This document shows, piece after piece, positions 1,478 to 25,250 of a stretch of 64,000 bases of DNA (its first letter is position 1; every line of letters begins with the position of its first letter). Origin of the DNA: an uncultured Bacteroidia bacterium (GTDB taxonomy: Bacteria > Bacteroidota > Bacteroidia > Bacteroidales > CAJPTX01); assembly GCA_963543925.1 (NCBI GenBank), contig CAUUCP010000005.1:2361-66360 (forward strand). Reading direction: 5' to 3'. The notes beneath the pieces were generated by a model. That model was not told the DNA's origin and did no database searches. It saw only the letters and a list, made by a program, of their open reading frames with translations. The translations under genes were made by a program, and so were the position numbers.

Positions 1478-1960
1478 ATGACAACAGAAGAATACAACGA
1501 TTGTGTAGACCAATATGCTGACGGTCTCTACCGTTTTGCCCTTCGCTTGATGGACAATCGCGTAGTGGCAGAGGATTTGGTGCAGGAGGCCTTTACGCGT
1601 CTCTGGGAGAAACGCCAGGGGGTCGCTGCCGCGGGAGCACGTCCCTATTTGTTTACTACGCTTTATAATGCTGCGGTAGACCTGATGCGCATCACCAGAC
1701 CCCAAGTAGGAGTTGAGGAGGTGCGTACGGCGACTTTCCAACAACCGACGTTCGATATTCAGGAACGCTTGAACCGTGGCTTGGCGCTCCTCCCAGAGGT
1801 GCAACGTACGGTACTCCTCTTGCGAGATTATGAGGGGTATAACTATGCCGAGATTGGCGATATAGCACACCTTTCCGAGTCGCAGGTCAAGGTATATATC
1901 CACCGTGCGCGGCAGTTCCTGCGTAACTATCTTGGCGATTTAGAGGAGTTGATAGGATGA
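1478..1960 (+). CDS. ECF-type RNA polymerase sigma-70 family factor
   Basis: 160 aa. Region-2-like AEDLVQEAFTRLWEKR and region-4 HTH LPEVQRTVLLLRDYEGYNYAEIGDIAHLSESQVKVYIHRARQFL. Confidence 0.9.
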   Translation: MTTEEYNDCVDQYADGLYRFALRLMDNRVVAEDLVQEAFTRLWEKRQGVAAAGARPYLFTTLYNAAVDLMRITRPQVGVEEVRTATFQQPTFDIQERLNRGLALLPEVQRTVLLLRDYEGYNYAEIGDIAHLSESQVKVYIHRARQFLRNYLGDLEELIG

Positions 1961-2976
1961 ACCTCACAGACGAACTCTTGGCACGCTTGCGCTCTGGTGC
2001 ATTGGACGTAGACGAGGCGCTTGCCTTGAACGATACTCTAGAGCATCTCACAGAACACCCCAGTGAAGAAGCACTTGACGAGCACGTTGTATCTTCTTCG
2101 ACTGAGGGGATGGCAACAAATCTTAAGGCACGTCTGAAGCGTCCTGTACAGCAGATGAGACCCCTCTCCTCCTTCGAGGAGCTGTGCTACAAGGAGCTCG
2201 AGGGAGAACTCTCGGATGCTGAGCAGCACGAGCTCGGGGAGATTATCACGCTTTACCCCCAGTATGCTGCGCAGCGTATAGCCATTTTGCGTACTAAGCT
2301 CACTGTGCCTACCAACATAGTATACCCCCACAAGGAGCGTCTCAAACATTATCCTACGCTCTTTCATTGGAAAACAGTGTTGTGGAAAGGGATGGCGGTT
2401 GCCGCCTGTCTATTCTTTGTGTTGTGGGTGGGGATATCGCACCAAACCGACGACACGCGTATTGTGGTGGCAGAAGGATCGAAAGAAGTGCAACCTCAAA
2501 CGCAAACACTAACTCCTCCTCTCCTCGCCTTCTCTTCACCCTCGTCTGTGGATGCGAAAGCTTCTTTGTCAAAGAAGGACGGAGTAGTAACCAAGCCTGC
2601 GGCTACTACCGAGGCTGCTGCAACCATGAATACTTCGACCCCACTCCCTATTGACGAAGAAACCACTGCGACGATGGTGGAAAGTCCTCTCCATTACGCT
2701 TCCACAGAGGTAGGGAGAGCAGAAATGGACGAGGCACACCTTGCCCTTGTACCCCTCGCTTCGTTACCAGTACAACAGCTTTCTACAAATTGGACATTAG
2801 CGCTCGAGCCTCGCGACCCGATGCCAGAGGTCTACCACGACTGGGAGGCAATCGCCGCACAGGATGAACTAGCCGCCTTTGAAAAGGAAATGAAAGCGCT
2901 CAAGAAAACGGTACGTCCTGAACCGTCGTTACGTGCCAAATTTGTCGACTATGTCGTAGCACTTGCCTTGCGTTGA
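1957..2976 (+). CDS. Putative anti-sigma factor / single-pass membrane protein coupled to the ECF sigma gene
   Basis: ATGA start/stop overlap with the sigma gene (4 nt). One hydrophobic span (GMAVAACLFFVLWVGI) splits an acidic N-terminal part from a Thr/Ala/Pro-rich C-terminal part. No recognisable zinc-finger or FecR motif. Confidence 0.5.
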   Translation: MNLTDELLARLRSGALDVDEALALNDTLEHLTEHPSEEALDEHVVSSSTEGMATNLKARLKRPVQQMRPLSSFEELCYKELEGELSDAEQHELGEIITLYPQYAAQRIAILRTKLTVPTNIVYPHKERLKHYPTLFHWKTVLWKGMAVAACLFFVLWVGISHQTDDTRIVVAEGSKEVQPQTQTLTPPLLAFSSPSSVDAKASLSKKDGVVTKPAATTEAAATMNTSTPLPIDEETTATMVESPLHYASTEVGRAEMDEAHLALVPLASLPVQQLSTNWTLALEPRDPMPEVYHDWEAIAAQDELAAFEKEMKALKKTVRPEPSLRAKFVDYVVALALR

Positions 2977-3070
2977 TAGTGTGCTTGGATTTTAGACGAA
3001 GGAAGGTCAACGTAGTTACGAAGGTCGTATTTTTCCTACTCAATAGTCTTCTACTATCTTTTTGAAATAA

Positions 3071-3109
3071 GGGGCTTGCCATTCTGTGGTAGCCCCATTT
3101 TTCTTTTTG
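3071..3109 (+). terminator. Hairpin plus T-run downstream of the sigma/anti-sigma pair
   Basis: GGGGCT (3071-3076) pairs with AGCCCC (3091-3096) and is followed by ATTTTTCTTTTT. The loop is long (14 nt). Confidence 0.45.
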
Positions 3110-3150
3110 TTGTAAATTGCGGTGAAAGGACAGATAAAAGTAGTGATAAG

Positions 3151-3807
3151 ATGATGAAGTGGTTATTTCTTTTGGTGGTATCGAGCTTGGCAGCTCTGCT
3201 CTCCTGTACGACAGGGGACAATATAGAGACGCCAGAGGGGGTCGGGGAAGGTCTCGAAGCCTTTTCCAAAGCGCAACGCAAACAGGCGAATACCGCCGCC
3301 AGCGAGCCCTATTTATCCAGTTTTGAGAAGGAGGTCTTTCTTTACCTCAATTTGGTGCGCATCAACCCCTCGCTTTTTGCTAAGACATTTGTCCAAGGAT
3401 ATGAGGGTGCACCAGGTTATGCCAAGGGCTATGCTTTCGATGAGCGTAAAGCCTCTCTATTAGAACAGCTCAAATATATGCAGCCTTTGGAGGTCATCAA
3501 GCCCAATAAGGAGCTCTTTGATCTCGCCGAGTGTTTTGCTACAGCACATGGAAAGAAAGGACTGGTAGGACATGATCGTACGGGGACGGGGTGTGAGAGA
3601 GGCTATCATGCCGAGTGTTGCGGTTATGGAAAATATGATTCGGGGCTTTACTCCATTCTCGAACTATTGGTCGATTCCGGAGAGGGGAACGAGGCACTCG
3701 GACACCGACGAATCCTCCTAGGCGATTACAACTACATGGGGGTGGCACAGCGCGACCATACACGGTATGCCAAGTGTACTGTCCTGGACTTTTGGGCGGC
3801 GCAATGA
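3151..3807 (+). CDS. CAP/SCP (PR-1-like) domain lipoprotein
   Basis: I chose the internal start MMKWLFLLVVSSLAALLSC (lipobox LSC). The CAP-like core is FEKEVFLYLNLVRINP ... AHGKKGLVGH ... ALGHRRILL. Confidence 0.7.
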   Translation: MMKWLFLLVVSSLAALLSCTTGDNIETPEGVGEGLEAFSKAQRKQANTAASEPYLSSFEKEVFLYLNLVRINPSLFAKTFVQGYEGAPGYAKGYAFDERKASLLEQLKYMQPLEVIKPNKELFDLAECFATAHGKKGLVGHDRTGTGCERGYHAECCGYGKYDSGLYSILELLVDSGEGNEALGHRRILLGDYNYMGVAQRDHTRYAKCTVLDFWAAQ

Positions 3808-3854: not shown

Positions 3855-6800
3855 ATGAGGATGACCAGATTGGGGATACGAGCACTACTGCTTATACTCG
3901 TATTGTGGGGAACTGTGGGGCTACTCTTTGCTCAGAATGCCCCTATGAAATTGAGACTCCGAACAGATGACGGGGCTAGGGTAGAAATACCCGTCATCTC
4001 ACGAGGGTACTATACCCTTCGTTGGAAAACAAAAGAGGGGGATGACTGGAACTATGAGAGAGCAGAGAATACCTTTAAGAAAAAGTTGCCCGCCGTGGGG
4101 GAGTATGACTTTGAACTCGGACCAGAGAACATACGCCGTGTAGATTACAGCCCTAGTAGTGCCTCTAAGGCGGCGGTGCAGTTGCTCGAAATCGCTGCTT
4201 GGGGCGATGTCGTCTGGGATAACATGCGCGAGGTGTTTGCAGGATGTCGCAATATGGAGATCTCCGCGACAGATCTCCCTAATATGAGCTTTGTACACGA
4301 CTGTGAAGGGATGTTCTCTGGGTGCAGTACGATGAATAGTCCGAACCTCTCGGGTTGGAATATGAGTACGGTGCGAAATATTTCTGGGATGTTCGCTGGA
4401 TGTACGAACTTTAACCAGCCTCTTGATCGTTGGGATGTGAGCCATGTGGAGAAAATGGACGGTCTCTTCGTTCAAGCAAACGCCTTTGACCAACCCCTCG
4501 GTACATGGGAGCTGCGCGTATGCTCCAGATTAGCACTCCCGATAATGAGCGAGGAGAACTACGTTACTACGCTCCAGCAGTGGGCAAATAAGACGGGAAT
4601 GGTCGAAGGATTGAAACTCTATGCTCCGTTTCGTTCCTATGCCAAGTGTACGGAGGCAAGGACGAAACTCATAGAAGAGAGAAAATGGGAGATTACTGGC
4701 GATTACGAGCGTTTGGGATCTCCTAAAGGAACGAACCCCTTTATCTTCAAGATAAAAGCCCAAGCAACACGAGTATATCTACCACTCTTTGGAAAGGACT
4801 TCTCATTTACCTATCAAAAGGAGGGAGGAAGCCCTGTCGCTGTGAACAATGTGACGAGCATACCCTTGCCCTCTTTTGAGGCAGAGAAAGGGGCAACCTA
4901 TACGATTTCCGTTGCTCCGCAGGGGCTTGGCGCGTTTGGGATGAGACTAGAGGCTGTAAGCCCTGATCTTTTGGGGATAGAGATTACCGAGATCCTCCGC
5001 TTTGGCGACGTACAGTGGGCTTCGACAGCACGCTTCTTGCGAAACTTTACTGGGCACATCGCTGCCGATGCGGGAAGCCCTGACCTCTCGATAGTGAAAG
5101 ATGCTGCAGGGATGTGCGAAGAAATGGGAGAAAATACGGGGATAGATGTAAGCACGTGGAATGTTGCGAACATAGAGGACTTCTCCGACTTGTTTAGCTA
5201 TAGTTCGGAAAAAGGGGTAGACATCAGTACCTGGAAGCTCTACGCGTGCAAGAAGCTCGATTTGAGTAACTCGCTCCTAAGCCCAGAAATGTATGAGAAG
5301 GCCCTGAAAGCATGGAGCGAAGACCCAAAGACGAAGACAGGGGTACGACTCAAAGCAGAGGGACTGATCTATCCTGCAACAGCCAACGTGTATCGCCAAA
5401 AGCTCGTGACAGAGAAAGGATGGGTGATAGAAGGCGATGAGCTCCCTGATTTCATCTCCTTGTCCAAGAAAGAACAAAAACCACTCTACCAAGGGGCTAC
5501 ACACGAGTACAGGATCGCGTTTGGGAAAAATATTACCACTCTTGAAATAAACAATCTCGTCTTTACCTCAGAGCCTGTCGACGCCTTGACTTGTGAGGTA
5601 AAAACAGATGGTGTGGAGTATTTCCTGTCGGTAAAAGCCAACCAGTCAGGGAAAGTTACTATCAAGGCTACGCTACCCCAAACTGCCGCACACGGAACAG
5701 TGGAGGTAGCATACCCCATAACAGTGCTTGAGACACCCACGACCATCAAGGTCTATGACATGACGGGGAATGAGATCGCCGATCGCGTGACGATCAAAGA
5801 GGGAACTCTTACCCGTTTTAGAGCTGAGGTACAACCGAAGGAAATACAAGATTGGGCATTTGATATACAGCCCGTTGTCGTATTTACTGCTCTGGGAAAT
5901 GAGTTGACTTTAGACACAGACGCGACGCCTGGCACCTACACAGTCTCGGTGTCAGTCGAGGGGGTGGCGCAGCTGAAAAAGACCTTCCAACTGAAAATAG
6001 AGCCAGTATTGCGGGTAAAGCTTAGTCAAGAAAACCCATTGGAACTAATCCTTAATCGAGAAGAGGAAAAGAAAAAATTCCAAGTAGTAGCACAGGTCTT
6101 GCCAGCTGCAAGTGCTGCGAGCCAGAATGTAGTATGCAGTATCGAAGGTACAGATAGACAAGTGATCTCTATCTCTTCCGAGGGATTGATCACCGCACTC
6201 AAGCCTGGGACGCAACTCGTAAAGGTCACCGCAAAGGATAACCCAGAGGCTATCCCCGCCTTCTTGCCCGTAACGGTAGATTATAGCTTGGATCAGATCG
6301 CAATCCTCAAGGATGGACAGGAGGTCACAGAGTATACTATTGATTTGAGCGAGGCTGTGATGAACCCAAACGATGGCTCTTTCGTCCTAAAAGCAAAGTA
6401 CACACCAGAGGAAATTCTCAATAGAGAGGTGGATTGGGAGATCTCCGATGAATACTTCCGTAGGGAGGATCTCTCACCAGAAGAGGTACGTCTGACCCCA
6501 CTGAAGAAAGGCACGAGCACCGTGAAGCTGACCTACCGAGCGAATCCCAACCAAGATGCTACCCTTCGGGTAACGATAGAGCACAATGCTAAAGGGTTAA
6601 AGATCTTTCATGAGAATACAGAGTGTACAGGGGCACAGTTCCTGTTGTGGGAATCGTTGAGTAACGTGGTCTTCCAAGTGAAAGCGCTCCCTGCAGGCGC
6701 AGATCTCCCCACGGATTTGGTATGGACGTCGGACAACCCGAAGTTTACTGTCGTTGGCGGTACGGTAACGCCCACCGCTACTGCTGCGGCGGGGGATCAG

Positions 6801-8741
6801 GCAACTATTACAGTCAAGAGTACGGCACAGCCTACCCTAGCAGCCTCTTTTACGGTAAAGATGGTCAGTGAAGTAGTGCCTGCGGCAACCGCAGTAACAC
6901 TGCCCGTTACGATGTTTGAGAAGTTCCTAAACGATAGTTTCGACATCGGGGTAAGTGTCTCCCCTGCTACAGCACAGCAGTTTGTCGCGTGGGAGTACGA
7001 ACCCAAGGATCAAAAGGTGCTCGAAATCACGCCTACGGGAACCGTAAAGATCTTCCAGCTCGGAATTGTGAAGGTAAGAGCCGTCACGAGCAACGGAAAA
7101 TACTCAGCCTGGGCGACGATTAGGGGTTGTAACCGATTAACTGCTATACGATTTGTCAATCCTCCTACAGAGCTCTATGATAGAACGGAAAAGGGGAAGG
7201 TCTTGCAACTTGGCTTTACTCCCGACGCGCAGTACCCCAGCTATACCGTGACGTTTGACCCCCCAGAGGCCCTCGAGTTGATTCGGACTCCTGCGAGCTT
7301 CTTGTACGTAGTAAAGGTGAAGAATGCAAAGAAAGGAGACAAGGTGACTATCCGTCTATCAGTTCCTGCTCAGCCCGAGCTCGCAGCAGCAACTTGCGAA
7401 GTACGGATTGTGGAATACATCGACCTCAAGGGGCTCTCTGTGGCTCATGCCGATCAGGAATTATTGATGCTGGTCAATGAGCGTAAGACCCCCAACATAA
7501 CGTTCCAACCAGCAGATGCGACGAATAAGAAATTGAGCTGGAATTCTTCCAACCCCTCGGTCGCAGACTACGACCTTACTACAAAGGAAATTGTAGCAAA
7601 ATCTCTAGGTACGGCAACCCTTACTGCAACCTCGGAAGAAGGCGGCTACAAGGCTATATTTCAGGTAAAGGTGCTCAAAGAGAAGAAAGACCCCGAGAGT
7701 GTGACTCTCACCCCAACCTCCCTCCCAACTCTTTGGGTAGATAAAGCCTTTAATCTGACCGCTACGGTGAACCCCGCAGAGGCTTCGCAAGTCGTGCAGT
7801 GGGTGTTTACACCAGCAGATCAGGACGTGGTGACACTCTCCTCCGAAGGGGTAGGAAAAGCCTTAAAACCAGGCGTCGTAAAGGTGAAGGCGCGTACACA
7901 GAATGGCAAGGAGTCAGAAGAACTCGAGATCCGTGTATTGGCAAAGCTAGCATCGCTGACTTTCCAAGAGCCCGCAACCGAGGTATTCGTAGGGAAAGAA
8001 ACGAAGTTTACCCTAGCCTTTACTCCAGACACTGACGTCGATAAGTCTTGCGATATTTCCTTTACTCCCACAGAGTACATTGAAAAGGTAGCGTTGGAAA
8101 ATGGGGTATTGACCGTAAAGGGAATCAAACCTTTGGCAACGGGCAAGGTGACTATCTCGGTAAAGAGTACACTCTACTCCGATCTCCCACCTGCGACGTG
8201 TGAAGTTGAGGTAAAGGGCACAAACCATGTCGATGTGCCGATAGTGGTCGAGTCGATCAGTTTACCCTCAACCGCCACAGTCGAGGTGGGGAAGGATACC
8301 ACGCTCTTGGTGACTTTTAAACCAGAAAACCCCACCGATAAGACGCTCACCTGGACAAGCTCTGACCCCACCATCGCTACAGTAACGGACGGAGTTGTAA
8401 AGGGTGTGGCAGTGGGTACGGCCACCATTACGGCGACCAGTGTGAACAACAAACCAGCTTCGTGTACCGTGACGGTGACACCACCTACCTCTGTAGACGA
8501 AACCGTCTTTGCTGAGGTCATGGTAGTTCCGAATCCGTTCACTACGCACCTACGCGTTGTGAATCCTACAGGGGTGCAGATGCGTTATACTCTGGTGAAC
8601 CTTTCGGGTATAGCCCTTCGTTCGGGTGTCGTAACTGATACAGAGTTCTTGATCGACACCTCGACACTTCCAGCAGGTGCGTATTTTGTGCGTTTAGAGG
8701 CGCAAGGAGGCGCTCAAAAGACTGTAATGGTATCTAAGTAG
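3855..8741 (+). CDS. Giant T9SS-secreted surface protein: BspA/DUF285-type LRR N-terminus, multiple Big_2-like Ig domains, type-A C-terminal sorting domain
   Basis: 1628 aa with a signal peptide (LLLILVLWGTVGLLFAQ). DUF285 motifs are MFSGCSTMNSPNLSGWNMSTVRNISGMFAGCTNFNQPLDRWDVSHV. Big_2-like units include LTWTSSDPTIATVTDGVVKGVAVGTATITATS. The CTD is VVPNPFTTHLRV...LPAGAYFVRLEAQGGAQKTVMVSK. Confidence 0.9.
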   Translation: MRMTRLGIRALLLILVLWGTVGLLFAQNAPMKLRLRTDDGARVEIPVISRGYYTLRWKTKEGDDWNYERAENTFKKKLPAVGEYDFELGPENIRRVDYSPSSASKAAVQLLEIAAWGDVVWDNMREVFAGCRNMEISATDLPNMSFVHDCEGMFSGCSTMNSPNLSGWNMSTVRNISGMFAGCTNFNQPLDRWDVSHVEKMDGLFVQANAFDQPLGTWELRVCSRLALPIMSEENYVTTLQQWANKTGMVEGLKLYAPFRSYAKCTEARTKLIEERKWEITGDYERLGSPKGTNPFIFKIKAQATRVYLPLFGKDFSFTYQKEGGSPVAVNNVTSIPLPSFEAEKGATYTISVAPQGLGAFGMRLEAVSPDLLGIEITEILRFGDVQWASTARFLRNFTGHIAADAGSPDLSIVKDAAGMCEEMGENTGIDVSTWNVANIEDFSDLFSYSSEKGVDISTWKLYACKKLDLSNSLLSPEMYEKALKAWSEDPKTKTGVRLKAEGLIYPATANVYRQKLVTEKGWVIEGDELPDFISLSKKEQKPLYQGATHEYRIAFGKNITTLEINNLVFTSEPVDALTCEVKTDGVEYFLSVKANQSGKVTIKATLPQTAAHGTVEVAYPITVLETPTTIKVYDMTGNEIADRVTIKEGTLTRFRAEVQPKEIQDWAFDIQPVVVFTALGNELTLDTDATPGTYTVSVSVEGVAQLKKTFQLKIEPVLRVKLSQENPLELILNREEEKKKFQVVAQVLPAASAASQNVVCSIEGTDRQVISISSEGLITALKPGTQLVKVTAKDNPEAIPAFLPVTVDYSLDQIAILKDGQEVTEYTIDLSEAVMNPNDGSFVLKAKYTPEEILNREVDWEISDEYFRREDLSPEEVRLTPLKKGTSTVKLTYRANPNQDATLRVTIEHNAKGLKIFHENTECTGAQFLLWESLSNVVFQVKALPAGADLPTDLVWTSDNPKFTVVGGTVTPTATAAAGDQATITVKSTAQPTLAASFTVKMVSEVVPAATAVTLPVTMFEKFLNDSFDIGVSVSPATAQQFVAWEYEPKDQKVLEITPTGTVKIFQLGIVKVRAVTSNGKYSAWATIRGCNRLTAIRFVNPPTELYDRTEKGKVLQLGFTPDAQYPSYTVTFDPPEALELIRTPASFLYVVKVKNAKKGDKVTIRLSVPAQPELAAATCEVRIVEYIDLKGLSVAHADQELLMLVNERKTPNITFQPADATNKKLSWNSSNPSVADYDLTTKEIVAKSLGTATLTATSEEGGYKAIFQVKVLKEKKDPESVTLTPTSLPTLWVDKAFNLTATVNPAEASQVVQWVFTPADQDVVTLSSEGVGKALKPGVVKVKARTQNGKESEELEIRVLAKLASLTFQEPATEVFVGKETKFTLAFTPDTDVDKSCDISFTPTEYIEKVALENGVLTVKGIKPLATGKVTISVKSTLYSDLPPATCEVEVKGTNHVDVPIVVESISLPSTATVEVGKDTTLLVTFKPENPTDKTLTWTSSDPTIATVTDGVVKGVAVGTATITATSVNNKPASCTVTVTPPTSVDETVFAEVMVVPNPFTTHLRVVNPTGVQMRYTLVNLSGIALRSGVVTDTEFLIDTSTLPAGAYFVRLEAQGGAQKTVMVSK

Positions 8742-8766
8742 CGATTGGCTACTAAACGAGCGAATA

Positions 8767-8804
8767 ACCCGCCCTACTGCTCTTTTTGGAGTAGTGGGGC
8801 GGGT
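8767..8804. terminator. Imperfect hairpin between the convergent adhesin and RloB genes
   Basis: ACCCGCCC TACT (8767-8778) pairs with AGTA gtg GGGCGGGT (8790-8804) with a 3-nt bulge. There is no strong U-tract on either strand. Confidence 0.35.
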
Positions 8805-8853
8805 TGTCCTTTGATATGGGATGCTGCTAAAGTGTAGGCAGGCGAAGGGAACC

Positions 8854-9573
8854 TTATTTTTTGTTTACTGTCTTCTTGAGCTTTTCTAAGAGCTCTTTAT
8901 CTTCCCCTATCAGCTGCTTTACTAATTTGTAGACTTGCGTACATGGATTATGTTTTGCATAGTTTGTATCGGTGAAGCCTGCAGCAGCACGCGCTGCATT
9001 TTTGAGGGCTTCTTCTTGCGAGCCACATTCTGTCATAATGCGATAATTGTTGGGGTCATTTTTCTGGTACTGATAGGGAGTTGTTCCGTTGTATTTACCT
9101 GATTTATTTACCGCCCTGGAGATTCTATCCGCATATTGATTCCGATTCATCGCGGTGTCTACAAATTGAAAATGATATAGAAACCAAAGTTCAAAAGCTT
9201 CATTACTCCACGCACATTTTATTCCCACTTTATGGGCTTTTGTTATAGCAGCATTAAAATCCCTATTGGGAAAGGAATCCTTATCAAATACAGCCCATAT
9301 TTGGTCATATTCTTGTCCGTTGTCTTTTGCTTGATTAGATAAGCGTATGGCCTCGTCTACTACGCTGAGGGTATTTTTCCCACACCCCCTCACTTCTATC
9401 ATTGCTGTATTGCGACTTATTGTCTTAAAGGCATTGAAATAGTTCGGTTCAGTCTTTTCGCCTTCGCAAACGATTAAAATGCGGATAACAATCTTACGAG
9501 GGTTGCGCCTCTCTTTTTGATGTGCATAACGCCTCTCTAAGGCAGGCTCTATTTTAATTCTGTTAGCGGGCAT
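8854..9573 (-). CDS. RloB-like (Toprim-like) protein, partner of the upstream ATPase
   Basis: 239 aa. RloB hallmarks are ILIVCEGEKTEPNYF, IWAVFDKDSF and AWSNEAFELWFLYHF. It lies 10 nt downstream of the ATPase stop on the same strand. Confidence 0.85.
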   Translation of the reverse strand: MPANRIKIEPALERRYAHQKERRNPRKIVIRILIVCEGEKTEPNYFNAFKTISRNTAMIEVRGCGKNTLSVVDEAIRLSNQAKDNGQEYDQIWAVFDKDSFPNRDFNAAITKAHKVGIKCAWSNEAFELWFLYHFQFVDTAMNRNQYADRISRAVNKSGKYNGTTPYQYQKNDPNNYRIMTECGSQEEALKNAARAAAGFTDTNYAKHNPCTQVYKLVKQLIGEDKELLEKLKKTVNKK

Positions 9574-9583
9574 AGCAATACAT

Positions 9584-10852
9584 TTATTCGGTTAGTATAT
9601 AAGGGATCGCCCCATAGCGCCCTGCTATATAGTTTCGCTCATAATTGGCGTTGTTCCGTGGTTTTGTTCCGTCAGGGAACACGATGTCGGAGAGGCAATA
9701 TAAATCGGTTTGTTCCATAGCATTTTTTTCAGTAAACCAGATCTGATCGCGTCGCATATTTTTCGTAGAAAGGAGGTGCGTATCATGGGTGGTAAATATC
9801 AATTGCGCATGATTGGGGTTGGTCGTCTCATTATTGAATAATGAAATAATGTTTTGAGAAATCAGAGGGTGCATCTTCGCATCTAGTTCGTCAATCACAA
9901 GCACAGAACTATTATTCAGGGTATCAAACAGAGGTCCCGCTAAATCAAATAGTTTGATAGTACCCGATGATTCCCGCTCGTAGAATGCGAAATCTAATAC
10001 GCCATCTTTGATACCCTCCGTGTTATAAACATTATGGATGGAATTCAACTCAAGGTGCTCTTTCCTATCCAATGTCTTTGTTAGTAAGTTTTTCAATTCG
10101 TCTGGAATTTCGTCGGGGATGGACGGCTTTTCCTCTTTTGTCTCAAGATCTACAAAGCCTACTTGGAGTCTCTTCAAGAAATCAAGAACCTTAGTGCTAA
10201 GTTCCGTCTTCTGATGGAATTGAAGTTTCGAAAAATTCCTATAACCCTGATTATTAAGTCCCGAGATTACGTGAATCTTATTCTGAAACCATGAAAGTAC
10301 GCTCTTGGAGCGTGCGCCTCCTAATTGTGCACACAAAGAGAGAAAAAGACGGTTGTCGTTTAATTTATTTTCTAAGTCGATCCCTTCCGCGAATAGTTTC
10401 TCATTGATGGCAATATTATCATCCTCGCGAATGTATAGGTAAGTTTCCTTTGAGCGAGGTGTGCTACTTACGAAGAGCCATTCACTTTCTATCCGAGAAG
10501 GGAGATAACTGAAACCATAGCGGTAGCAGTAACTACCATGCATAAAAACAATTTCAAAAGATGTGGGCGCTTGGTTTCCTCGCAAAAGCAAAAATGGATC
10601 GTACATTAACGAATCGTCATCGTTGAGCTTTACGGAAAATAACACACACGCAATCATGGTATTAAAGGCTTTGACCAAATTCGATTTCCCACTCGAATTA
10701 GCGCCATAAATGGCCAAGGTCTTCAGTATACGATGCGAATTCTCTATAGCAACATTGTCATTGTTGGGTTCGCTAATATTTTGTGCTTTCATTGAAAGCG
10801 TTTTTTTGTCAAAGAAAGAACGATAATTACCCACAGAGAACTCAAGCAACAT
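9584..10852 (-). CDS. ABC/SMC-like AAA_21-type ATPase (AbiLi/RloA-like)
   Basis: Start moved to the internal MLLEFSVGNYRSF (nt 10852), a typical N-terminus for this family. Walker A is YGANSSGKSN, Walker B is VLVIDELDAKMHP, the H-loop is FTTHDTHLL. A TACCTTTG -7 box lies 32 nt upstream of this start. Confidence 0.85.
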   Translation of the reverse strand: MLLEFSVGNYRSFFDKKTLSMKAQNISEPNNDNVAIENSHRILKTLAIYGANSSGKSNLVKAFNTMIACVLFSVKLNDDDSLMYDPFLLLRGNQAPTSFEIVFMHGSYCYRYGFSYLPSRIESEWLFVSSTPRSKETYLYIREDDNIAINEKLFAEGIDLENKLNDNRLFLSLCAQLGGARSKSVLSWFQNKIHVISGLNNQGYRNFSKLQFHQKTELSTKVLDFLKRLQVGFVDLETKEEKPSIPDEIPDELKNLLTKTLDRKEHLELNSIHNVYNTEGIKDGVLDFAFYERESSGTIKLFDLAGPLFDTLNNSSVLVIDELDAKMHPLISQNIISLFNNETTNPNHAQLIFTTHDTHLLSTKNMRRDQIWFTEKNAMEQTDLYCLSDIVFPDGTKPRNNANYERNYIAGRYGAIPYILTE

Positions 10853-10883
10853 GATTATAAATGGATTATCACACTTAGCAGAA

Positions 10884-10891
10884 CAAAGGTA
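10884..10891 (-). promoter_or_regulatory. Bacteroidota -7 promoter box (TACCTTTG on the minus strand) for the ATPase/RloB operon
   Basis: The plus strand reads CAAAGGTA, whose reverse complement TACCTTTG matches TAnnTTTG. It is 32 nt upstream of the ATG at 10852. Confidence 0.5.
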
Positions 10892-11193
10892 CGATTTGTT
10901 ACCAGAGTATGTTAGATATTGAAGAAAAACTTCAGAACGAGACATCGAGTTGTCCGACAGGGGACGCTCTTTGACTAGTCCCAGTAGTACCCCCCCAGAA
11001 AAATAGGTAAGAGTACTATCTATCACAAAAAAGAACCGCCCCTCTGACAAGAAGACAGAAGAGCGGCGCTTCTATGCATAGCGAACAAGCTTGTCGTGCG
11101 AGCCTTACCCCCCCTACACGAGGAAGACGCCCCTCAGGAGATTCTAAGCATGCCCACGCACGCGATCTTGTTGACTCTAACCGCGAAGGGCGT

Positions 11194-12663
11194 TTATTCA
11201 AAGATTGCCCTCACCACATACACCTTTTTCGTAGGATAACTGTCACGACTGACCGTCAGAGAGATAAGCTTTTTACCTTCCGCGGGTGTCGCCTTTATCT
11301 CTATCTTGCTACTCAGAGTAACATTGCTAAGCCTTTGTTCGCCGTTGATAGTGAGTGTCCCGCTGCCGTCGACTACGGTCAGGAGGCCGAAGTCTTGTTC
11401 CTCCTTATCCCCGTTGAATTTCCAGCCACGTGCTATGAGTGTCTCGCGTGCAGCCTTCCCTTCGGCATTGTAAACCAGTTCATTGACATCGAACTCAAGA
11501 CCACTTATCGTTGTCCCTTCTGCCCACCCTACGAGTGTCTTGGAGTAGTTGTCCACACTCATCGCGGTAGTGCCTAGCCCTCCCACTACTGTTTTTATGT
11601 TCCATTTGCCTAATGGCTGGTTAAAGGCAGAGCAGTCATCGAACATACCTTGCATACTGGTCACGTTGCTTACGTTCCAGTTGTTTAGTGGCTGGTTAAA
11701 TTTGGAGCAGCCATTGAACATACCTTGCATGTCGGTTACGTTGCCCACGTTCCACTGTTCCAGTGGCTGGTTAAAGGCGGAGCAGTCGCGGAACATACCC
11801 CCCATGTTGGTCACCTTGCTTACGTCCCAGTTGTCTAGTGGCTGATTGAAGGTGACGTCGTTTGTGAACATCCACTCCATATTGGTCACGTTGCCCACGT
11901 TCCAATCTTCTAGTGGCTGGTTAAATTTGGAGCAGCCATCGAACATACCTTGCATGTCGGTTACGTTGCCCACGTTCCAATCTTCTAGCGGCTGGTTAAA
12001 CTTGGCGCAGTTGTAGAACATAAAGTTCATATCGGTTACGTTGCCCACGTTCCACTTGTCTAGCGGTTGATTAAAGGCGGCGCAGTCATCGAACATACTC
12101 TCCATGTTGGTTACGTTACTCACGTTCCAGTGGTTTAGTGGCTGATTGAACGCGGAGCAGCCGTAGAACATATTGGACATGTACATCACCTTCCTAAGGT
12201 CTGGGGTATCGATCCCCGCTGCGAAAGTCATGTTCGCGCATCCTCTGAACATTCTTTCCATAGACTCCCACTCCACGGTACCGAATTGAATCACCTCCAG
12301 CAAGGCTTCGTTACTGCTTGCAGGAACCCAATTCCCACCAATAGACTCTCCTGTCATCTCCATATACTTCACTCCTGCAGGTCCCGCCTCTACGGTGTAA
12401 ATCCCGTCATCTGTAGGAGTAAAGGCGTACGGATGTCCCCCATCCGAGACGCTTACTGTTTGGTTGATCTTCTCGTTCCCACTGGCGTTCTTGATCACCA
12501 TCTTGTACGTCCCCACGATGGGGATTTTCAATTCCACGCCCGCCTTTCCTTTCCACTTCGTAATAAACGGACGTCCTTGCGCACTCACATCTCCCACAAA
12601 ATAGAGTAGTACTACTAGCGCTACTACGATTTTTAACGTTTTCCTCATACTTATCCACTGCAT
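11194..12663 (-). CDS. BspA/DUF285 family leucine-rich-repeat surface protein
   Basis: 489 aa with a signal peptide (VVALVVLLYFVGDVSAQ). About nine 25-aa repeats follow the pattern MF.GCS.FNQPL..WNVGNVT.M. The N-terminal beta-rich module is paralogous to that of the 3855-8741 protein. No obvious T9SS CTD. Confidence 0.9.
   Translation of the reverse strand: MQWISMRKTLKIVVALVVLLYFVGDVSAQGRPFITKWKGKAGVELKIPIVGTYKMVIKNASGNEKINQTVSVSDGGHPYAFTPTDDGIYTVEAGPAGVKYMEMTGESIGGNWVPASSNEALLEVIQFGTVEWESMERMFRGCANMTFAAGIDTPDLRKVMYMSNMFYGCSAFNQPLNHWNVSNVTNMESMFDDCAAFNQPLDKWNVGNVTDMNFMFYNCAKFNQPLEDWNVGNVTDMQGMFDGCSKFNQPLEDWNVGNVTNMEWMFTNDVTFNQPLDNWDVSKVTNMGGMFRDCSAFNQPLEQWNVGNVTDMQGMFNGCSKFNQPLNNWNVSNVTSMQGMFDDCSAFNQPLGKWNIKTVVGGLGTTAMSVDNYSKTLVGWAEGTTISGLEFDVNELVYNAEGKAARETLIARGWKFNGDKEEQDFGLLTVVDGSGTLTINGEQRLSNVTLSSKIEIKATPAEGKKLISLTVSRDSYPTKKVYVVRAIFE
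11596..12261 (-). repeat. Tandem 75-bp (25-codon) LRR coding repeats
   Basis: 75-nt periodicity runs through the LRR block. 11690-11754 and 11915-11979 (225 nt = 3 units apart) are identical at 64 of 65 nt. Confidence 0.85.
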
Positions 12664-12796
12664 TGCACAACAATATAAGGCAAGTTCTCAAAAAAAACGT
12701 CAATGCAAAATAGTGCCTAGTGCATCAGGCGAGAGAAAGTGCTCAAAAGGCAGTAGGGGACTGGGGTAGAAAGGAATGGAAAATAATTTTCTCTGG

Positions 12797-13169
12797 TACT
12801 GTCTGTAAAAGTGTGTAAGAGGCTGCCTATTCCTCCGCCTACCGCCCGCTCTTTATACCTCCATTATACATTACCACTTTAGGAAATCCTAAACCAGTAT
12901 TTCTACAACTAACTAAATAATGCAATATAGAAATAATGGAATACATTTATAATAAGGGCGTTCTTTCTGCCAAATTGACAGGCTCTACAAAGGGTCTACA
13001 CGTACTCTACACCGACTCTACACGTACTCTACAAGGATGACAAAAGGATGACAAAATGACAATACACCCGCTCTACCCTTATCCCAACCTGTGGGTAGTC
13101 TCGTATATTTAGAAATATATAATGCTTTATAAGCCCCCCGATCGCAGACCCGTTCTCACCCCCTTACAC
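12797..13169 (+). repeat. Intergenic IR-bounded element, copy A (variant; 11-bp array in inverted orientation)
   Basis: It starts with TACTGTCTGTAAAAGTGTGTAAG and shares the left arm with copies B and C (GGCTGCCTAT..CGCCCG.TCTTTATAC..CACTTTAGGAAA.C.TAAA). It ends in CCCTTACAC, abutting copy B. Confidence 0.7.
12983..13059 (-). repeat. Phased 11-bp direct-repeat array of copy A (7 units)
   Basis: The units are ctctacaaagg / gtctacacgta / ctctacaccga / ctctacacgta / ctctacaagga / tgacaaaagga / tgacaaaatga. The first five are the reverse complement of GTGTAGAG-type units. The last two are a second motif in the same 11-nt register. Confidence 0.8.
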
Positions 13170-13171
13170 GG

Positions 13172-13555
13172 TACTGTCCGTAAAAGTGTGTAAGAGGCTG
13201 CCTATTTCGCCTCCCAACGCCCGTTCTTTATACACATAGTGCCTACTCCACTTTAGGAAACTCTAAATCTCTACTTTTATACGATAAGATAAATAATAGA
13301 ATACGAGAACAGCCGAATACGTATAGAATATGGGCTATTTTTGGGTAGGTAATTTTACCTAATTTGGTGCGTGTAGAGTACGTGTAGAGTACGTGTAGAG
13401 TCGGTGTAGCGTTGGTGTACTCCGAACATGCCTTGTTTGGGGATAAGGGATTAAAGAAAACATAAAGCGGATTTTCCCCGTTTTTCTCCCCCGTTGCAGT
13501 GATTCTTACACACTTTTTTAGGACAGTATCCCTTACACACTCTTCTAGGACAGTA
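13172..13555 (+). repeat. Intergenic IR-bounded element, copy B (reference copy)
   Basis: The left end TACTGTCCGTAAAAGTGTGTAAG (13172-13194) is the reverse complement of the right-end unit CTTACACACTTTTTTAGGACAGTA (13505-13528), apart from one indel and one mismatch. The right unit is duplicated at 13532-13555. The palindrome TAGGTAA-TT-TTACCTA is at 13346-13361. Confidence 0.8.
13371..13425 (+). repeat. Phased 11-bp direct-repeat array of copy B (5 units)
   Basis: The units are gtgtagagtac / gtgtagagtac / gtgtagagtcg / gtgtagcgttg / gtgtactccga, contiguous with exact 11-nt spacing. Confidence 0.85.
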
Positions 13556-13632
13556 GCGTCGTGTTCTGGAGGGGGGATAGATTCTAGCACCCCGCTCTTT
13601 TACAACAACTCTGTAGATTAAAATAAAAGCAC

Positions 13633-13640
13633 TACCTTTG
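13633..13640 (+). promoter_or_regulatory. Bacteroidota -7 promoter box (TACCTTTG) upstream of tRNA-Arg
   Basis: It matches TAnnTTTG and ends 21 nt upstream of the mature tRNA 5' end. Confidence 0.5.
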
Positions 13641-13660: not shown

Positions 13661-13737
13661 GGCCCCGTAGTTCAGCTGAATAGAACGTCAGATTCCGGTT
13701 CTGAAGGTCGTGGGTTTGAATCCCGCCGGGGTCACCA
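13661..13737 (+). tRNA. tRNA-Arg(CCG): tRNA-Arg (anticodon CCG), CCA encoded
   Basis: Hand-folded cloverleaf. The acceptor is GGCCCCG/CGGGGTC (one G-U), the D stem is GTTC/GAAC, and the anticodon stem is TCAGA/TCTGA with loop TTCCGGT. The T stem is GTGGG/CCCGC, followed by discriminator A and CCA. Confidence 0.9.
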
Positions 13738-13765: not shown

Positions 13766-14545
13766 ATGCGTCACCCCCTTAAGTGTTCGAGCCTTGTGGC
13801 AAGCCTCTTTATTGCAGGTGTTGTGCTCGTAGGCTGTTCGGAGTCTGAACCCCAACAGAAAATCCTCCCTGGTTCGCCAGAAGATACCCCAGAGAACGCG
13901 ATTAAGAATTACGACTTCAAGAAGCTTAGCTATGCATTGGGGATTTCGGCTGGACAGTATATCGTGAGCGAGGAAATACGTCTTCGTGAAGAGGAGTTTA
14001 TGCGTGGCTTGCGAGACCAGATCAATGGTAAGCCCGAGCTCTCCGATGCTGAGGTACAGGACGTCATGCGTTCCTATGCGATGATGCACATGAACGCCAA
14101 GGCTGCCGAGGCGGGGCGTCTTGAGAAGCGTTACTTTGACTCTGTCGCACAGCTCGAAGGGGTGATCAAGGATGAGTCTGGGCTATGCTACAAGATCCTC
14201 CAAGAGGGAACTGGGGCGCAGCCACAGGACACGAGTATGGTTCTGATGCACTACAAGGTTACGACCGTCGATGGTAAGCAAATTGACGCCTCGGCAGAAG
14301 AACCCGTGATGCTCGATCTGCGCCGTGTCATCCGTGGCTGGTCGATCGCTATTCCCAAGCTCAAGGAGGGTGCCAAAGCAACCCTTTACATCCCCTCCGA
14401 ACTCGCTTATGGACCCTCCGGGCGAGATCCCATTCCTGCCAATGCAACGTTGATTTTTGATGTAGAGCTCGTCAAGGTGATGTCTCCTGCTGATGTGGAG
14501 GCTTATACTAAGAAGATGAGCCAGAGGACAAACGAGAAAAAGTAA
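13766..14545 (+). CDS. FKBP-type peptidyl-prolyl cis-trans isomerase lipoprotein (Mip/FklB-like)
   Basis: The lipobox is VLVGC. The C-terminal FKBP core is VLMHYKVTTVDGKQIDAS...VIRGWSIAIPKLKEGAKATLYIPSELAYGPSG...IPANATLIFDVELVKV. Confidence 0.9.
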   Translation: MRHPLKCSSLVASLFIAGVVLVGCSESEPQQKILPGSPEDTPENAIKNYDFKKLSYALGISAGQYIVSEEIRLREEEFMRGLRDQINGKPELSDAEVQDVMRSYAMMHMNAKAAEAGRLEKRYFDSVAQLEGVIKDESGLCYKILQEGTGAQPQDTSMVLMHYKVTTVDGKQIDASAEEPVMLDLRRVIRGWSIAIPKLKEGAKATLYIPSELAYGPSGRDPIPANATLIFDVELVKVMSPADVEAYTKKMSQRTNEKK

Positions 14546-17558: not shown

Positions 17559-20210
17559 ATGTCTTACACGAAACGTCTCTTACTTATCGATGGCTATGCG
17601 CTCCTCTATAGGTCGCACTATGCTATGATTAACAATCCGTTAATCACTTCCAAGGAGGAAAACACCTCGGCAGCCTTCGGTTTCCTACGGACGTTGCTAG
17701 ACTGCATAGATCAGTTCCAACCCACGCACCTGGGGGTGGCGTTCGACTTGGGGGGAAAGACCTTTCGCCACGAAATGGACGAGAATTACAAGAGCAATCG
17801 ACCACCTACACCGCCCGAGGTGAAATTCGGACTGGAGGTCGTTCGTCAGTTCCTAAAAACATTACACATTATAGAGTTGTGGGCAGAAGGGTTCGAGGCG
17901 GACGATGTCATAGGTTCTATTGCGCACCACTTTGCCAGCGAAGAAGTACAGGTGCAGATCTACTCCCCCGACAAGGATTTCCAACAGCTCTTGGCACCAC
18001 ACGTGCAGCTGCTGCGCCCCAAGAGTATGGGAGTAGGGCTCAATCTTGTGACAGAGGAAGATCTTTTACAGAAATACCACATCAAGTCTGCGAAACAGTT
18101 TGTCGACATACTAGCCCTATGGGGAGATACGGCAGATAACGTGCCCGGCGTCCCAGGCATTGGCGAGAAGCGTGCTGCAGCCTTGGTATCCGAATATGGT
18201 TCGATAGAGTACATCTTGGGCAACAGTGGGCGTTTTACGAAACACATGGCGGCGAGTTTGGAACAGAATACAAAACAGCTGATGCTCTCGCGTCAGTTGG
18301 TGCGTATCCGTCTTGATGCCCCATTCCCAGAAGATATTGAGCAGTATCGGATGCCCTCCGACGTCTCTGCAGATGCCCTCCGTGCCCTGAATGACCAGTA
18401 TGAGTTCCGCTCTCTTGGCGAACGGCTCGTACGCTGTTTCACGAAAACGCAAAACACCCCGAAACAACCCTCGTTAGATGCCTTTTGTAAGGATATAGCC
18501 ACCTTGACAACAAGAGGGGAATTTGACGCCTTCGTACGCGATTTAGAATACCTACAGACGCCTTACTCGCTCGTGCTCTCTGCCAAGGGGTATGCTCTTG
18601 CCTATTTGAAAGGAGAAACGCTCGTCGCAAGAGTATTTGCCATAGAGGTCTTGGATGCTTGTGCTCCAGAGTGGCGCGATGCGATGGCACACTTCTTTGC
18701 CCGCCCCGAGCTCTCCTGTTATGCCTATGACCTCAAGGCGATCTTCTACTCCCTGCGTGCGCAAGGGATGAAGCCCTTGGGGGCAAAGCTGGTCGACCTC
18801 CTGATTGCGCACTACCTCCTAGCACCAGAAAAAGCTTATGAGTTGGAAGTGCTTATCGCCAAGGAATTTCATTACACGCTGCAAGCACCTGCACACTCCC
18901 TCGACGCGCTAGCGGAACAAGCCATACTCCTGTACCGTTTGGGAGAGCAGCTCGCCGAACGGATTGACGCTACGGGGCTTGGAAAGATCTTCCATGACTT
19001 GGAGATGCCCCTCCTCCCCGTCCTCTTTGCTATGGAAGTCACGGGGGTTGCTGTAAATACCGAGGTATTGACACAGCTCCACGACCGTTTGCAAGCAGAG
19101 CTCGACGCTCTTGAGGCAGAGATCCGAACCGTAGCGAAAAATCCCGACTTCAAGATCTCATCCCCAAAACAGGTAGGGGAGCTCCTTTTTGAAACCTTGG
19201 CAATCGCCGACAAGCCGAAGAAGACTCCTAAGGGGCAGTACAATACTACCGAGCAAGAGCTAGAAAAGTATCGGGAGGCATACCCCGTAGTAGAGAACAT
19301 CTTGCACTATCGCGAGACTGCCAAGCTCCTTTCAACCTACATCGATGCGCTACCAAAATTGGTAGACCCACACACGCACCTCATCCATGCCTCCTTTAAC
19401 CAAGCGGTGGTGGCCACAGGACGTCTGAGTTCGAGCAACCCCAATCTACAAAACATCCCCGTGCGTACCGAGGTGGGGCGTGAGATTCGTTCGGCATTCG
19501 TCTCGCGATTTGGTAAGGAGGGGCTACTCCTCTCCGCCGACTATTCACAGATTGAGCTCCGTGTGCTCGCACACATGGCCAATGACGAGCATATGATCGC
19601 TGCCTTCAACCAAGGGCAGGATATCCATACGGCCACGGCAGCGCGAGTCAATGGCGTGCCCGTAGAGGAGGTCTCCAAGTTGATGCGTGAGCGTGCGAAG
19701 CGCGTGAACTTCGGGATTGTCTATGGGATCAGTCCCTTTGGGCTCTCACAACAGTTGCATATCCCTATAGACGAAGCTGCGGCGTTTATGAAAAGCTATT
19801 TCGAGCTCTATCCTACTATCGAGACCTTTATGCATGACACCATCGAGGCGGGACGTCGCGACGGGTATGTACAGACCCTTTGGGGACGCCGTCGGTATGT
19901 GTATTACCTCCGTGCAGAAAATCAGAATGTCCGACAGGGGGCAGAGCGTATGGCAGTGAATATGCCTATTCAGGGGACGGCTGCCGATATTATCAAGGCT
20001 GCTATGGTACAGATTGCCGACCTGCTTCGTACGCATGGATTCCGCGCTCTGCTTACGACACAGGTACATGACGAACTCATCTTCGACGTACCTCGCGACG
20101 AGATAGAGAGACTCGCCCCACTTGTCAAGGAGACGATGGAGCGTGTCATGACCCTGCGTGTCCCCCTCGTGGTAGACCTCGCCGTAGGAGATCATTGGGG
20201 CGCATTGTAG
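17559..20210 (+). CDS. polA: DNA polymerase I
   Basis: 5' nuclease LLLIDGYALLYRSHYA. Pol motif A is LLSADYSQIELRVLAH, motif B is RERAKRVNFGIVYGIS, motif C is VHDELIFDVP. I prefer the ATG at 17559 to the listed TTG at 17553. Confidence 0.95.
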   Translation: MSYTKRLLLIDGYALLYRSHYAMINNPLITSKEENTSAAFGFLRTLLDCIDQFQPTHLGVAFDLGGKTFRHEMDENYKSNRPPTPPEVKFGLEVVRQFLKTLHIIELWAEGFEADDVIGSIAHHFASEEVQVQIYSPDKDFQQLLAPHVQLLRPKSMGVGLNLVTEEDLLQKYHIKSAKQFVDILALWGDTADNVPGVPGIGEKRAAALVSEYGSIEYILGNSGRFTKHMAASLEQNTKQLMLSRQLVRIRLDAPFPEDIEQYRMPSDVSADALRALNDQYEFRSLGERLVRCFTKTQNTPKQPSLDAFCKDIATLTTRGEFDAFVRDLEYLQTPYSLVLSAKGYALAYLKGETLVARVFAIEVLDACAPEWRDAMAHFFARPELSCYAYDLKAIFYSLRAQGMKPLGAKLVDLLIAHYLLAPEKAYELEVLIAKEFHYTLQAPAHSLDALAEQAILLYRLGEQLAERIDATGLGKIFHDLEMPLLPVLFAMEVTGVAVNTEVLTQLHDRLQAELDALEAEIRTVAKNPDFKISSPKQVGELLFETLAIADKPKKTPKGQYNTTEQELEKYREAYPVVENILHYRETAKLLSTYIDALPKLVDPHTHLIHASFNQAVVATGRLSSSNPNLQNIPVRTEVGREIRSAFVSRFGKEGLLLSADYSQIELRVLAHMANDEHMIAAFNQGQDIHTATAARVNGVPVEEVSKLMRERAKRVNFGIVYGISPFGLSQQLHIPIDEAAAFMKSYFELYPTIETFMHDTIEAGRRDGYVQTLWGRRRYVYYLRAENQNVRQGAERMAVNMPIQGTAADIIKAAMVQIADLLRTHGFRALLTTQVHDELIFDVPRDEIERLAPLVKETMERVMTLRVPLVVDLAVGDHWGAL

Positions 20211-24803: not shown

Positions 24804-24898
24804 ACCGCTCGGACGAGATCTGAGGAGGGTCTGCAGAAGATTTTGCACAGGATGTTCTGGAGCTCCTAGCCATACCGCATCCATGCGGAAAACCACGA

Positions 24899-25250
24899 TA
24901 CGGTTCTAAACAGTGTGTAACAAGCTTCCTGTTTCGCCACCCACCGCCCGTTCCTTATACACATAGCGCCTACTACTACTTTATGGAATCCTAAAGCGCT
25001 ATTTTTGTACGATAAACTAAATAATAGAGTGCTGGAATAAAGAAATGCGTATAGAATATGAGCTATTTCAGGGTAGGTAATTTTACCTAATTTAGGGCGT
25101 GTAGAGTACGTGTAGAGTCTGTGTAGCGTACGTGTAGCATTGGTGTACTCAGAACATGGCTTGTTTGGGGAGGGGGAATTAATGAAAATATAAAGCGGTA
25201 TAAGCCTGTTTTTCTCCCGTTGCTGTGATGCTTAGGCACTTTTACAGATA
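24899..25250 (+). repeat. Intergenic IR-bounded element, copy C
   Basis: It is collinear with copy B along its whole length. The degenerate ends are TACGGTTCTAAACAGTGTGTAAC and CTTAGGCACTTTTACAGATA. The palindrome TAGGTAA-TT-TTACCTA is at 25074-25089. Confidence 0.8.
25099..25153 (+). repeat. Phased 11-bp direct-repeat array of copy C (5 units)
   Basis: The units are gtgtagagtac / gtgtagagtct / gtgtagcgtac / gtgtagcattg / gtgtactcaga. Confidence 0.85.

Follow-up and report, generated by a model that had tools for sequence, protein, structure and literature searches.

What is the repeat of roughly 350 bp that occurs four times, each time between genes, in a 64-kb stretch of DNA from an uncultured Bacteroidia bacterium? 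The stretch, referred to here as the window, comprises the 64,000 nucleotides at positions 2,361 to 66,360 of contig CAUUCP010000005.1 (assembly GCA_963543925.1). An initial annotation, made from its letters without database searches, described the repeat as an unannotated element bounded by inverted repeats, and offered a MITE (miniature inverted-repeat transposable element), an invertible cassette or a structured regulatory or RNA locus as possible explanations. The first of these is very probably right: the repeats are best read as a MITE family in which ends of the IS256 family of insertion sequences (ISs) enclose ~300 bp of non-coding cargo unrelated to those ISs. As mobile DNA the family is of an ordinary kind, but its interior is unusually structured.

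Ends of the element and the insertion of copy B

The copies in the window are designated A, B, C and D, and the ends of B were judged from those of related intact ISs. The copies and the features at their ends are as follows.

12795-13169, plus strand: copy A, main part; the resident element, older than B and now split by it
13170-13530, plus strand: copy B, a complete 361-bp element (probable MITE) and the most recent insertion seen; GGTACTGTCC...GGACAGTATC
24897-25252, plus strand: copy C, with degenerate terminal repeats and without a target duplication
34180-34526, minus strand (inverted): copy D, with degenerate terminal repeats; an old insertion
13162-13169, no strand: left copy of the target-site duplication CCTTACAC, 8 bp, made by the insertion of B
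13170-13194, plus strand: terminal repeat of B, IRR type, GGTACTGTCCGTAAAAGTGTGTAAG; 23/25 identical to the transposase-distal IS256-family end GGTAGTGTCCGAAAAAGTGTGTAAG
13505-13530, minus strand: terminal repeat of B, IRL type, reading inward GATACTGTCCTAAAAAAGTGTGTAAG; matches the transposase-proximal end of intact IS256-family elements at 26/26 positions
13531-13557, minus strand: right terminal repeat of A, CCTTACACACTCTTCTAGGACAGTAGC; the second copy of the target duplication of B makes up its first 8 bp

Blastn and alignment bear out the four related copies: B is 81% identical to C over 352 bp and 75% identical to D over 306 bp, C and D share 85% identity over 267 bp, and the similarity between A and B (74%) is confined to the first ~168-170 bp. 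They measure 347-375 bp in the window, the family being non-coding and roughly 350-360 bp long, and a profile search built from the copies found no fifth one in the 64 kb. The sequence features quoted in the initial annotation were found where it had placed them, to within 2 bp, and B stands as an element, with its ends moved from 13172 and 13528 to 13170 and 13530 according to the related ISs.

The terminal inverted repeats are 24-26 bp long and are good in A (left repeat GGTACTGTCTGTAAAAGTGTGTAAG) and B only; the pattern that they define has a chance expectation of 0.00 in the window. A weak profile match to the end alone led to an exact occurrence of the 24-mer CTTACACACTTTTTTAGGACAGTA in a contig of a related species (L017, positions 19920-19943), where a truncated open reading frame (ORF) of 82 aa, MELTQTQISEIV..., starts ~50 bp inward. 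This ORF matches Pfam Transposase_mut and NCBIfam transpos_IS256 weakly, under each model's cutoff, and the match stretches to residues 1-222 when an intact transposase is used as the tblastn query. A scan of metagenomes with the end pattern CTTACACACTYTTN{2,4}GGACAGTA gave more than 120 loci, which is a lower bound; among the matches listed, an ORF of the type M(E/K)LT... begins 40-120 nt inward in 65 of the 104 loci having at least 100 nt of interior. The full-length proteins behind these ends have 383-395 aa and are DDE transposases of the Mutator/IS256 type (PF00872, E=7e-72 and 2e-76; NF033543, IS256 family transposase, E=5e-83). The ORFs scored with these two models begin 83-86 nt inside the ends, and plasmid-borne homologues of the transposases carry the annotation 'IS256 family transposase'. 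The intact ISs are ~1.33 kb long, start with G(A/G)TACTGTCCTA(A/T)AAAAGTGTGTAAG and finish with CTTACACACTTTTTCGGACACTACC (in short form G(A/G)TACTGTCC...GGACACTACC, with AAAAGTGTGTAAG as the inner part of the start), and have 8-bp duplications on either side (TGAATATG for L104, ATGAGGGG for L040). They are longer autonomous elements with the same termini, of the kind that the initial annotation had proposed to look for.

Judged by these matches, the two ends of one IS type, which can be told apart, are both present in B. TGTAAG occupies bp 21-26 of both B ends, where members of the family have their subterminal TGTAA(A/G) motif. Subterminal TGTAAA is a hallmark of the IS256 family, whose members transpose by copy-out/paste-in (PMC7780238) and make target duplications of 8-9 bp (PMC3189936; PMC7780238); in ISCth4, the subterminal region is bound by the N-terminal DNA-binding domain of the transposase (PMC7780238).

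The insertion of B can be followed to the base. The duplication of CCTTACAC around it is perfect over 8 bp (13162-13169 and 13531-13538), and the target lies within the right terminal repeat of A. Deleting B and one copy of the duplicate in silico gives ...CCCCCTTACACACTCTTCTAGGACAGTAGC joined to GTCGTGTTCTGG..., and the restored sequence matches base for base what the relatives L008 and L009 (~92% identical, from two independent samples) have there, namely one right end and its flank. Both have one element at the A/B site, colinear with the window, and represent the empty site for B. Filled and empty sites are thus documented for B at the level of sequence, and the boundary duplication together with the empty site is direct evidence of transposition. 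The end unit that the initial annotation had seen 'repeated' at 13532-13555 and had counted as part of B belongs instead to the right terminal repeat of A, and it appears repeated because B is nested there.

The case for a MITE is made up of the small size and lack of coding capacity, the IS-type terminal repeats, the 8-bp duplication (in B only), and the multiple copies with filled and empty sites; for the IS256 family it is made up of the subterminal TGTAAA-type motif and of the finding that the same ends bound elements with a DDE transposase. As the initial annotation had stated, no transposase or recombinase is present in the 64-kb window (Pfam on the window proteins; tblastn with an IS256-family transposase), and a MITE with these ends would therefore be mobilised in trans. 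By analogy with the family, a transposase of the IS256 type encoded elsewhere would bind each end in two parts, its N-terminal domain at the subterminal TGTAA(A/G) and its catalytic domain at the tip. The element would then be copied out as a double-stranded circle and pasted into a new site with an 8-bp staggered cut, leaving the 8-bp target duplication. Once inserted, copies change by gene conversion with one another, by slippage in an internal array of 11-bp repeats and by decay of their ends. The inferred parts of this scheme are the transposase that moves the element, the place where it is encoded, and the copy-out/paste-in route.

The copies in relatives

Contigs of relatives were fetched through the proteins flanking the copies. 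The element is carried by L008, L009, L014, L026 and L157 (~89-94% nucleotide identity), and is absent from L010/L011 (~70% nucleotide identity), L015-L025 (flanking protein ~87%) and L027-L036 (flanking protein ~71%). Presence and absence at orthologous sites, for which the initial annotation had recommended a search, were seen for B, absent from L008 and L009, and for C, which lies within a ~600-bp block missing from L015-L025 (flanking FKBP ~87% identical), where the spacer between ddl and the FKBP gene is only ~150 bp. Copy D has orthologues in L026 (D') and L157 (D''), and its insertion is therefore old. Both C and D look like old copies and are probably immobile. The contigs of L014 and L157 start beside or inside copies, as expected of a multi-copy repeat in short-read assembly.

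The contig L014 has an extra copy, E, which lies in the opposite orientation between window positions 25363 and 25370. A clean insertion polymorphism of E in L014 was considered and not accepted, since E is missing one end and the extra ~55 bp found there are known elsewhere in a relative. This ~55-bp segment (L014 80-135, L026 200-260) is absent from the window and holds GAACGTACG, which resembles ARACGTWCGT, the core of the Mpi invertase sites of Bacteroides fragilis.

The orientations of the copies bear on whether the element could be a phase-variable promoter cassette, one that a site-specific recombinase inverts between its inverted repeats, like the invertons of Bacteroidales. This is very improbable. 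Inverted repeats of 24 bp at divergent intergenic sites in a Bacteroidota host would suit such a cassette, as would E, inverted relative to the gene faced by C in the window, and the 11-bp array of A, which is on the opposite strand. However, E sits at a different site from C and is not a flipped C, while D, D' and D'' are all found in one orientation. The repeats are those of IS256 ends, Pfam finds no recombinase in the window, and the copies have no conserved Bacteroidetes -33/-7 promoter, the TAnnTTTG box being found only in B and C and at different places. We have consequently dropped this option of the initial annotation.

Several observations weigh against reading the copies as MITEs with IS256-family ends. 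Target duplications were looked for around A, C and D, and none was found. The terminal repeats of C and D are degenerate, and a repeat tool detects none there, so that the description of the element as bounded by inverted repeats stands for A and B and fails for the other two. Copy E, without one of its ends, is joined by sequence of another kind that is also found in L026. No intact IS256-family transposase was found in the window or in the few available contigs of close relatives, and the only gene of this family seen in relatives is the truncated pseudogene of L017, from a species whose flanking protein is ~87% identical. The ~300-bp interior has no similarity to the interiors of the ISs found, so that the element is not a simple deletion derivative. 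Finally, the right ends of C in the window and of D' in L026 adjoin the 3' end of hsdS, a type I restriction-modification specificity gene: positions 25255-25292 (minus strand), directly by C, encode its last 12 codons (...YYRNQLLRFPR) and the stop codon, and a frameshifted half-hsdS of ~600 bp (L026 350-943) lies at the equivalent position by D'. Not all of the spread can therefore have been by clean transposition, and the intergenic regions around C and D' read as mosaics of gene remnants. Window positions 25293-25369 recur at both loci in relatives.

These points could be gathered into a reading in which the repeat is not mobile, but an intergenic sequence spread solely by segmental duplication and homologous recombination, its IS-like ends being incidental relics. 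The right flank common to C and D' and the lack of target duplications at A, C and D would fit such a history. So would the tail of the element, since a derived version of it, GGTATAAGCCTGTTTTTCTCCCGTTGCTGTGATGCT, is common to C and D in the window and absent from D's orthologue in the six-copy alignment, which points to gene conversion between copies. We consider this reading improbable in view of B, which is two-ended, has its perfect 8-bp duplication exactly at the IS-defined ends and an empty site in a relative, and matches with its two ends the two different ends of one IS type.

Palindromes and the 11-bp array of the interior

In the six-copy alignment, and in the orientation of the initial annotation, the parts follow one another as IRR-type end, GC-rich arm, palindrome P1, AT-rich core, palindrome P2, 11-bp repeats, conserved block, tail and IRL-type end. 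Those that were located in A and B are the following.

13252-13267, no strand: palindrome P1, TTTAGGA-AA-TCCTAAA type; in all copies
13346-13361, no strand: palindrome P2, TAGGTAA-TT-TTACCTA, within a 20-bp stretch invariant in six copies
13369-13424, plus strand: array of B, 11-bp direct repeats of the CGTGTAGAGTA type
12985-13033, opposite strand: array of A, 11-bp TGTA repeats
13033-13056: additional array of A, AAGGATGACAA x2.2

The consensus of the conserved block is GGTRTAC..CATGSCTTGTTT..GAATT.A.GAAAATATAAAGCGG, and that of the tail is GTTTTTCTCCC..GTTGC.GTGATGCT. Copy A shares the arm, P1 and the AT-rich core with the other copies and then diverges, with a different palindrome, CTGCCAAATTGACAG. 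The interior was found only in this uncultured Bacteroidota lineage in the sequence searches made. The 20-mer containing P2, GTAGGTAATTTTACCTAATT, occurs three times in the window (0.00 expected); across one genome per species it gave 7 singleton chance matches with dissimilar flanks, and it had no occurrence in viral contigs or in metagenome contigs. Blastn of B against plasmid and phage collections gave no match, and a profile of the body found nothing in the 120 loci recovered by the terminal-repeat pattern. The initial annotation did not recognise a described element here and named a match to a catalogued family as what would overturn that view; the view holds for the ~300-bp interior, which matches none, and has to be given up for the termini, which are those of a catalogued IS family.

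No ORF is conserved across the copies, in agreement with the initial annotation. The minus strand does contain long stretches free of stops, of 95 aa in B and 111 aa in C, but their frame is not conserved between copies and has no start codon, and substitutions are spread evenly over the codon positions (0.44/0.45/0.37), with no excess at the third. On these grounds, a small protein encoded on the minus strand was rejected; Pfam gave no match for the ORFs overlapping the copies.

That the element encodes a structured non-coding RNA or acts as a cis-regulatory RNA is just as hard to credit as an invertible cassette. The conservation of non-coding sequence and the hairpin-capable palindromes would be compatible with such an RNA, and promoter activity has been reported for BrickBuilt, an analogous element. 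Against this, the Rfam search that the initial annotation had recommended returned only the tRNA at the gathering threshold and nothing credible at E<=5, and RNAalifold gave a covariation penalty (+2.95), with compensatory changes in just 5 of 74 pairs, the palindromes being without variation among copies and hence uninformative for covariation. No terminator-like site was found in the copies, and the number of array units differs between them. We therefore no longer retain the RNA option.

The 20-bp P2 block is identical in six of six copies that are otherwise 15-25% apart, a run length reached in 1 of 100,000 column shuffles. P1, P2 and the TGTA phasing were not found elsewhere in the window. 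For D and D', the core is 79% identical, compared with 76-85% at 4-fold degenerate sites in the flanking genes, so that most of the interior seems to evolve roughly neutrally, and the invariance of P2 suggests constraint.

According to Tandem Repeats Finder, each of the four copies contains an 11-bp array (B, 13370-13409, 3.6 copies with 93% matches; C, 25098-25137; D, 34288-34329; A, 12995-13033, inverted). Each copy has three to five direct repeats in the alignment; of the five that the initial annotation had given for B, the array itself is upheld and the count becomes 3-4 good units plus 1-2 degenerate ones. The units are GTGTAGAGTAC, GTGTAGCGTAC and GTGTAGCATKG in B, C and D of the window, GTGTAGCATTA in D' of L026, and GCGYTGTATCC in L008 and L014. 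The 11-bp period and TGTA are constant across copies and lineages, while the remaining seven positions change completely from one array to another (GTGTAGAGTAC, GCGTTGTATCC, GTGTAGCATTA). Orthologous arrays (D and D') are only 59% identical, as against 79% for the core and 76-85% at 4-fold sites, which indicates that the array changes faster than neutral, like a slippage-prone minisatellite. The difference between the L008/L014 unit and GTGTAGAGTAC of the window copies had raised the idea of a genome-specific unit that co-evolves with a binding protein; it was rejected, as L026, from the same assembly as L008, has units of the GTGTAG type. For an iteron-type replication origin or a parC-like partition site the array is there, but none of the copies adjoins a rep or par gene.

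That P2 and TGTA do not vary suggests constraint, for which a protein-binding site is the most plausible explanation, and such a role for P2 and the array is plausible from the pattern of conservation. A stronger version would make the interior a portable functional cis-module, consisting of a palindromic operator (P2, perhaps P1) and a helically phased 11-bp TGTA array, for which the MITE is only the vehicle; it is compatible with the MITE reading, and we hold it to be unlikely, although not negligible. Candidates for the binder are a regulator of the host, a protein of the nucleoid or partition type, and the domain with which the transposase itself recognises subterminal sites. In favour of this are the improbability of the invariant P2 block under shuffling, the fixed spacing of TGTA amid seven changing positions, the restriction of P1, P2 and the TGTA arrays to the copies within the window, and the fact that three lineages which have diverged retain D where it is. 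The subterminal transposase-binding motif of the IS256 family likewise has TGTA as its core (PMC7780238), but the overlap is only 4-5 nt. Further points speak against a module: the core of D and D' is no better conserved than 4-fold sites and the array is less so, an appearance of conservation could arise from copies converting one another, none of the copies has a candidate binding protein linked to it, and their orientation to the neighbouring genes varies. Still somewhat more doubtful is the notion that the cargo is a transposon-borne DNA-binding platform, in which an invariant palindromic operator and a phased TGTA array with freely drifting non-contact positions are spread between genes by the MITE. 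Such a platform could distribute sites for a host regulator or architectural protein, or it could act as a decoy or enhancer array for the subterminal-site-binding domain of the transposase and tune the mobilisation of the element that carries it.

Surroundings of the copies and comparison with known systems

All four copies are intergenic and lie between divergently transcribed genes. According to Pfam, A and B are flanked by a DUF285 gene on one side and by tRNA-Arg and an FKBP gene on the other; C lies between ddl and an FKBP gene, and D between an AAA-ATPase/PDDEXK gene and a DUF1573 gene. Proteins of the window include those with DUF3127, DUF1573, AAA-ATPase_like with PDDEXK_9, PorP/SprF and type IX secretion (T9SS) C-terminal domains, a set that points to a member of the Bacteroidota. 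The sole RNA gene nearby is tRNA-Arg(CCG) at 13661-13737, and an attachment site of an integrative element at this gene was rejected on three grounds, namely that the copies lie 5' of the tRNA, that there is no integrase, and that the other copies are not at tRNAs. A perfect Bacteroidetes-type -7 box (TAnnTTTG), TACCTTTG, is found at 13633-13640, upstream of tRNA-Arg by ~20 bp; L008 and L010 conserve this box, and the nested A/B elements end ~75 bp upstream of it.

On the other side of A and B, window positions ~3855-12663 are a variable island upstream of tRNA-Arg(CCG). They are absent from L010/L011, where genes matching 1478-3795 run straight into tRNA-Arg and the FKBP gene. Besides a 1628-aa DUF285/Big_2/T9SS-sorted protein and a further protein with DUF285, the island encodes an RloB-like protein and an AAA_21 ATPase, which together are likely a pair serving defence or a toxin-antitoxin pair. 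The DUF285-family gene at 11194-12663 (minus strand) is a repeat-protein gene with 7-8 tandem 75-bp (25-codon) repeats at 11524-12225, separate from the element. Three paralogous FKBP-type peptidyl-prolyl isomerase genes are present (13766-14545, 25533-26447 and 26882-27928), two of them directly downstream of element copies; since the FKBP genes share no DNA similarity, their position beside the copies looks like coincidence. In relatives, a 103-aa DDE_Tnp_1-like ORF (L017 16339-16650, L021 8465-8776) is the remnant of a second, unrelated IS; it adjoins a BACON/T9SS gene, which the window does not have there.

With the assignment to a MITE family on IS256-family ends, the apparent mystery of an undescribed element bounded by inverted repeats is removed, the duplicated end unit being explained by the nesting of B in A. 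Repeats of this sort interrupt assemblies made from short reads in this uncultured Bacteroidota lineage, and the copies are starting points for gene conversion and rearrangement in intergenic regions that hold promoters, the one just upstream of tRNA-Arg(CCG) among them. If the palindrome and the TGTA array do bind a protein, the family would be a bacterial case of a transposon spreading binding sites.

The closest counterparts of the ends are the IS256-family ISs themselves (prototype IS256; ISCth4 has been studied structurally), represented here by the metagenomic ~1.33-kb elements L104, L040, L092, L131 and L143. The window element shares with them the ends (26/26 and 23/25), the subterminal TGTAA(A/G) and the 8-bp duplication; unlike them, it has no transposase gene, has a dissimilar interior and is not self-mobile. 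Simple MITEs of the IS256 type were also recovered in the metagenome scan, as a 431-bp internal-deletion copy (L074) and as two-end elements of ~100 bp (L080 2181-2281, L101 133-233, L128 3254-3353, L152 817-908, L154 7441-7541, L068 5961-6060 and L075 10775-10873). From their sequences, the ~100-bp elements apparently arose by deletion between the CTTACAC in the transposase's first codons (M-x-L-T) and the CTTACAC in the far end; no target duplications are visible around those inspected. They have the same terminal repeats and are likewise non-autonomous, but whereas the simple MITEs keep the 5' leader or the transposase 3' end of the IS, the window family carries a foreign, structured cargo. 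Targeted full-text literature searches turned up no IS256-derived MITE with a foreign structured cargo and an internal minisatellite, which is absence of evidence only, within the papers covered.

Phased direct repeats of 11 bp are typical of the R1 parC iterons, of R388 stbDR and of OmpR/PhoB/ArcA-type binding arrays. The array of the element resembles these in its period of one helical turn, in having 4-5 units and in the adjacent palindrome and AT-rich stretch, an analogy that may or may not extend to function; it differs from them in lacking a linked par, rep or regulator gene, in the hypervariability of its units outside TGTA, and in its binding role, which is putative.

In architecture, the closest described analogues are BrickBuilt and MITEPgRS/MITE464 of Porphyromonas gingivalis (PMC4596501). 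These too are strictly intergenic elements of a Bacteroidota host, built of a leader, a variable tandem array and a tail between short IS-type ends, and they have many decayed ends, inconsistent target duplications and a lineage-restricted distribution. Their ends are however of the IS5 type and 12 bp long (GAGACCTTCGCA..., GAGACC...), with units of 23 or 41 nt (PMC4596501, Table 2), compared with GGTACTGTCC... and 11 nt in the window; there is no sequence similarity between them, and the two conserved palindromes are extra in the window family. The window family is thus analogous to BrickBuilt and MITEPgRS and a member of neither. It is useful to set beside these Porphyromonas elements, and could serve as a strain-typing marker.

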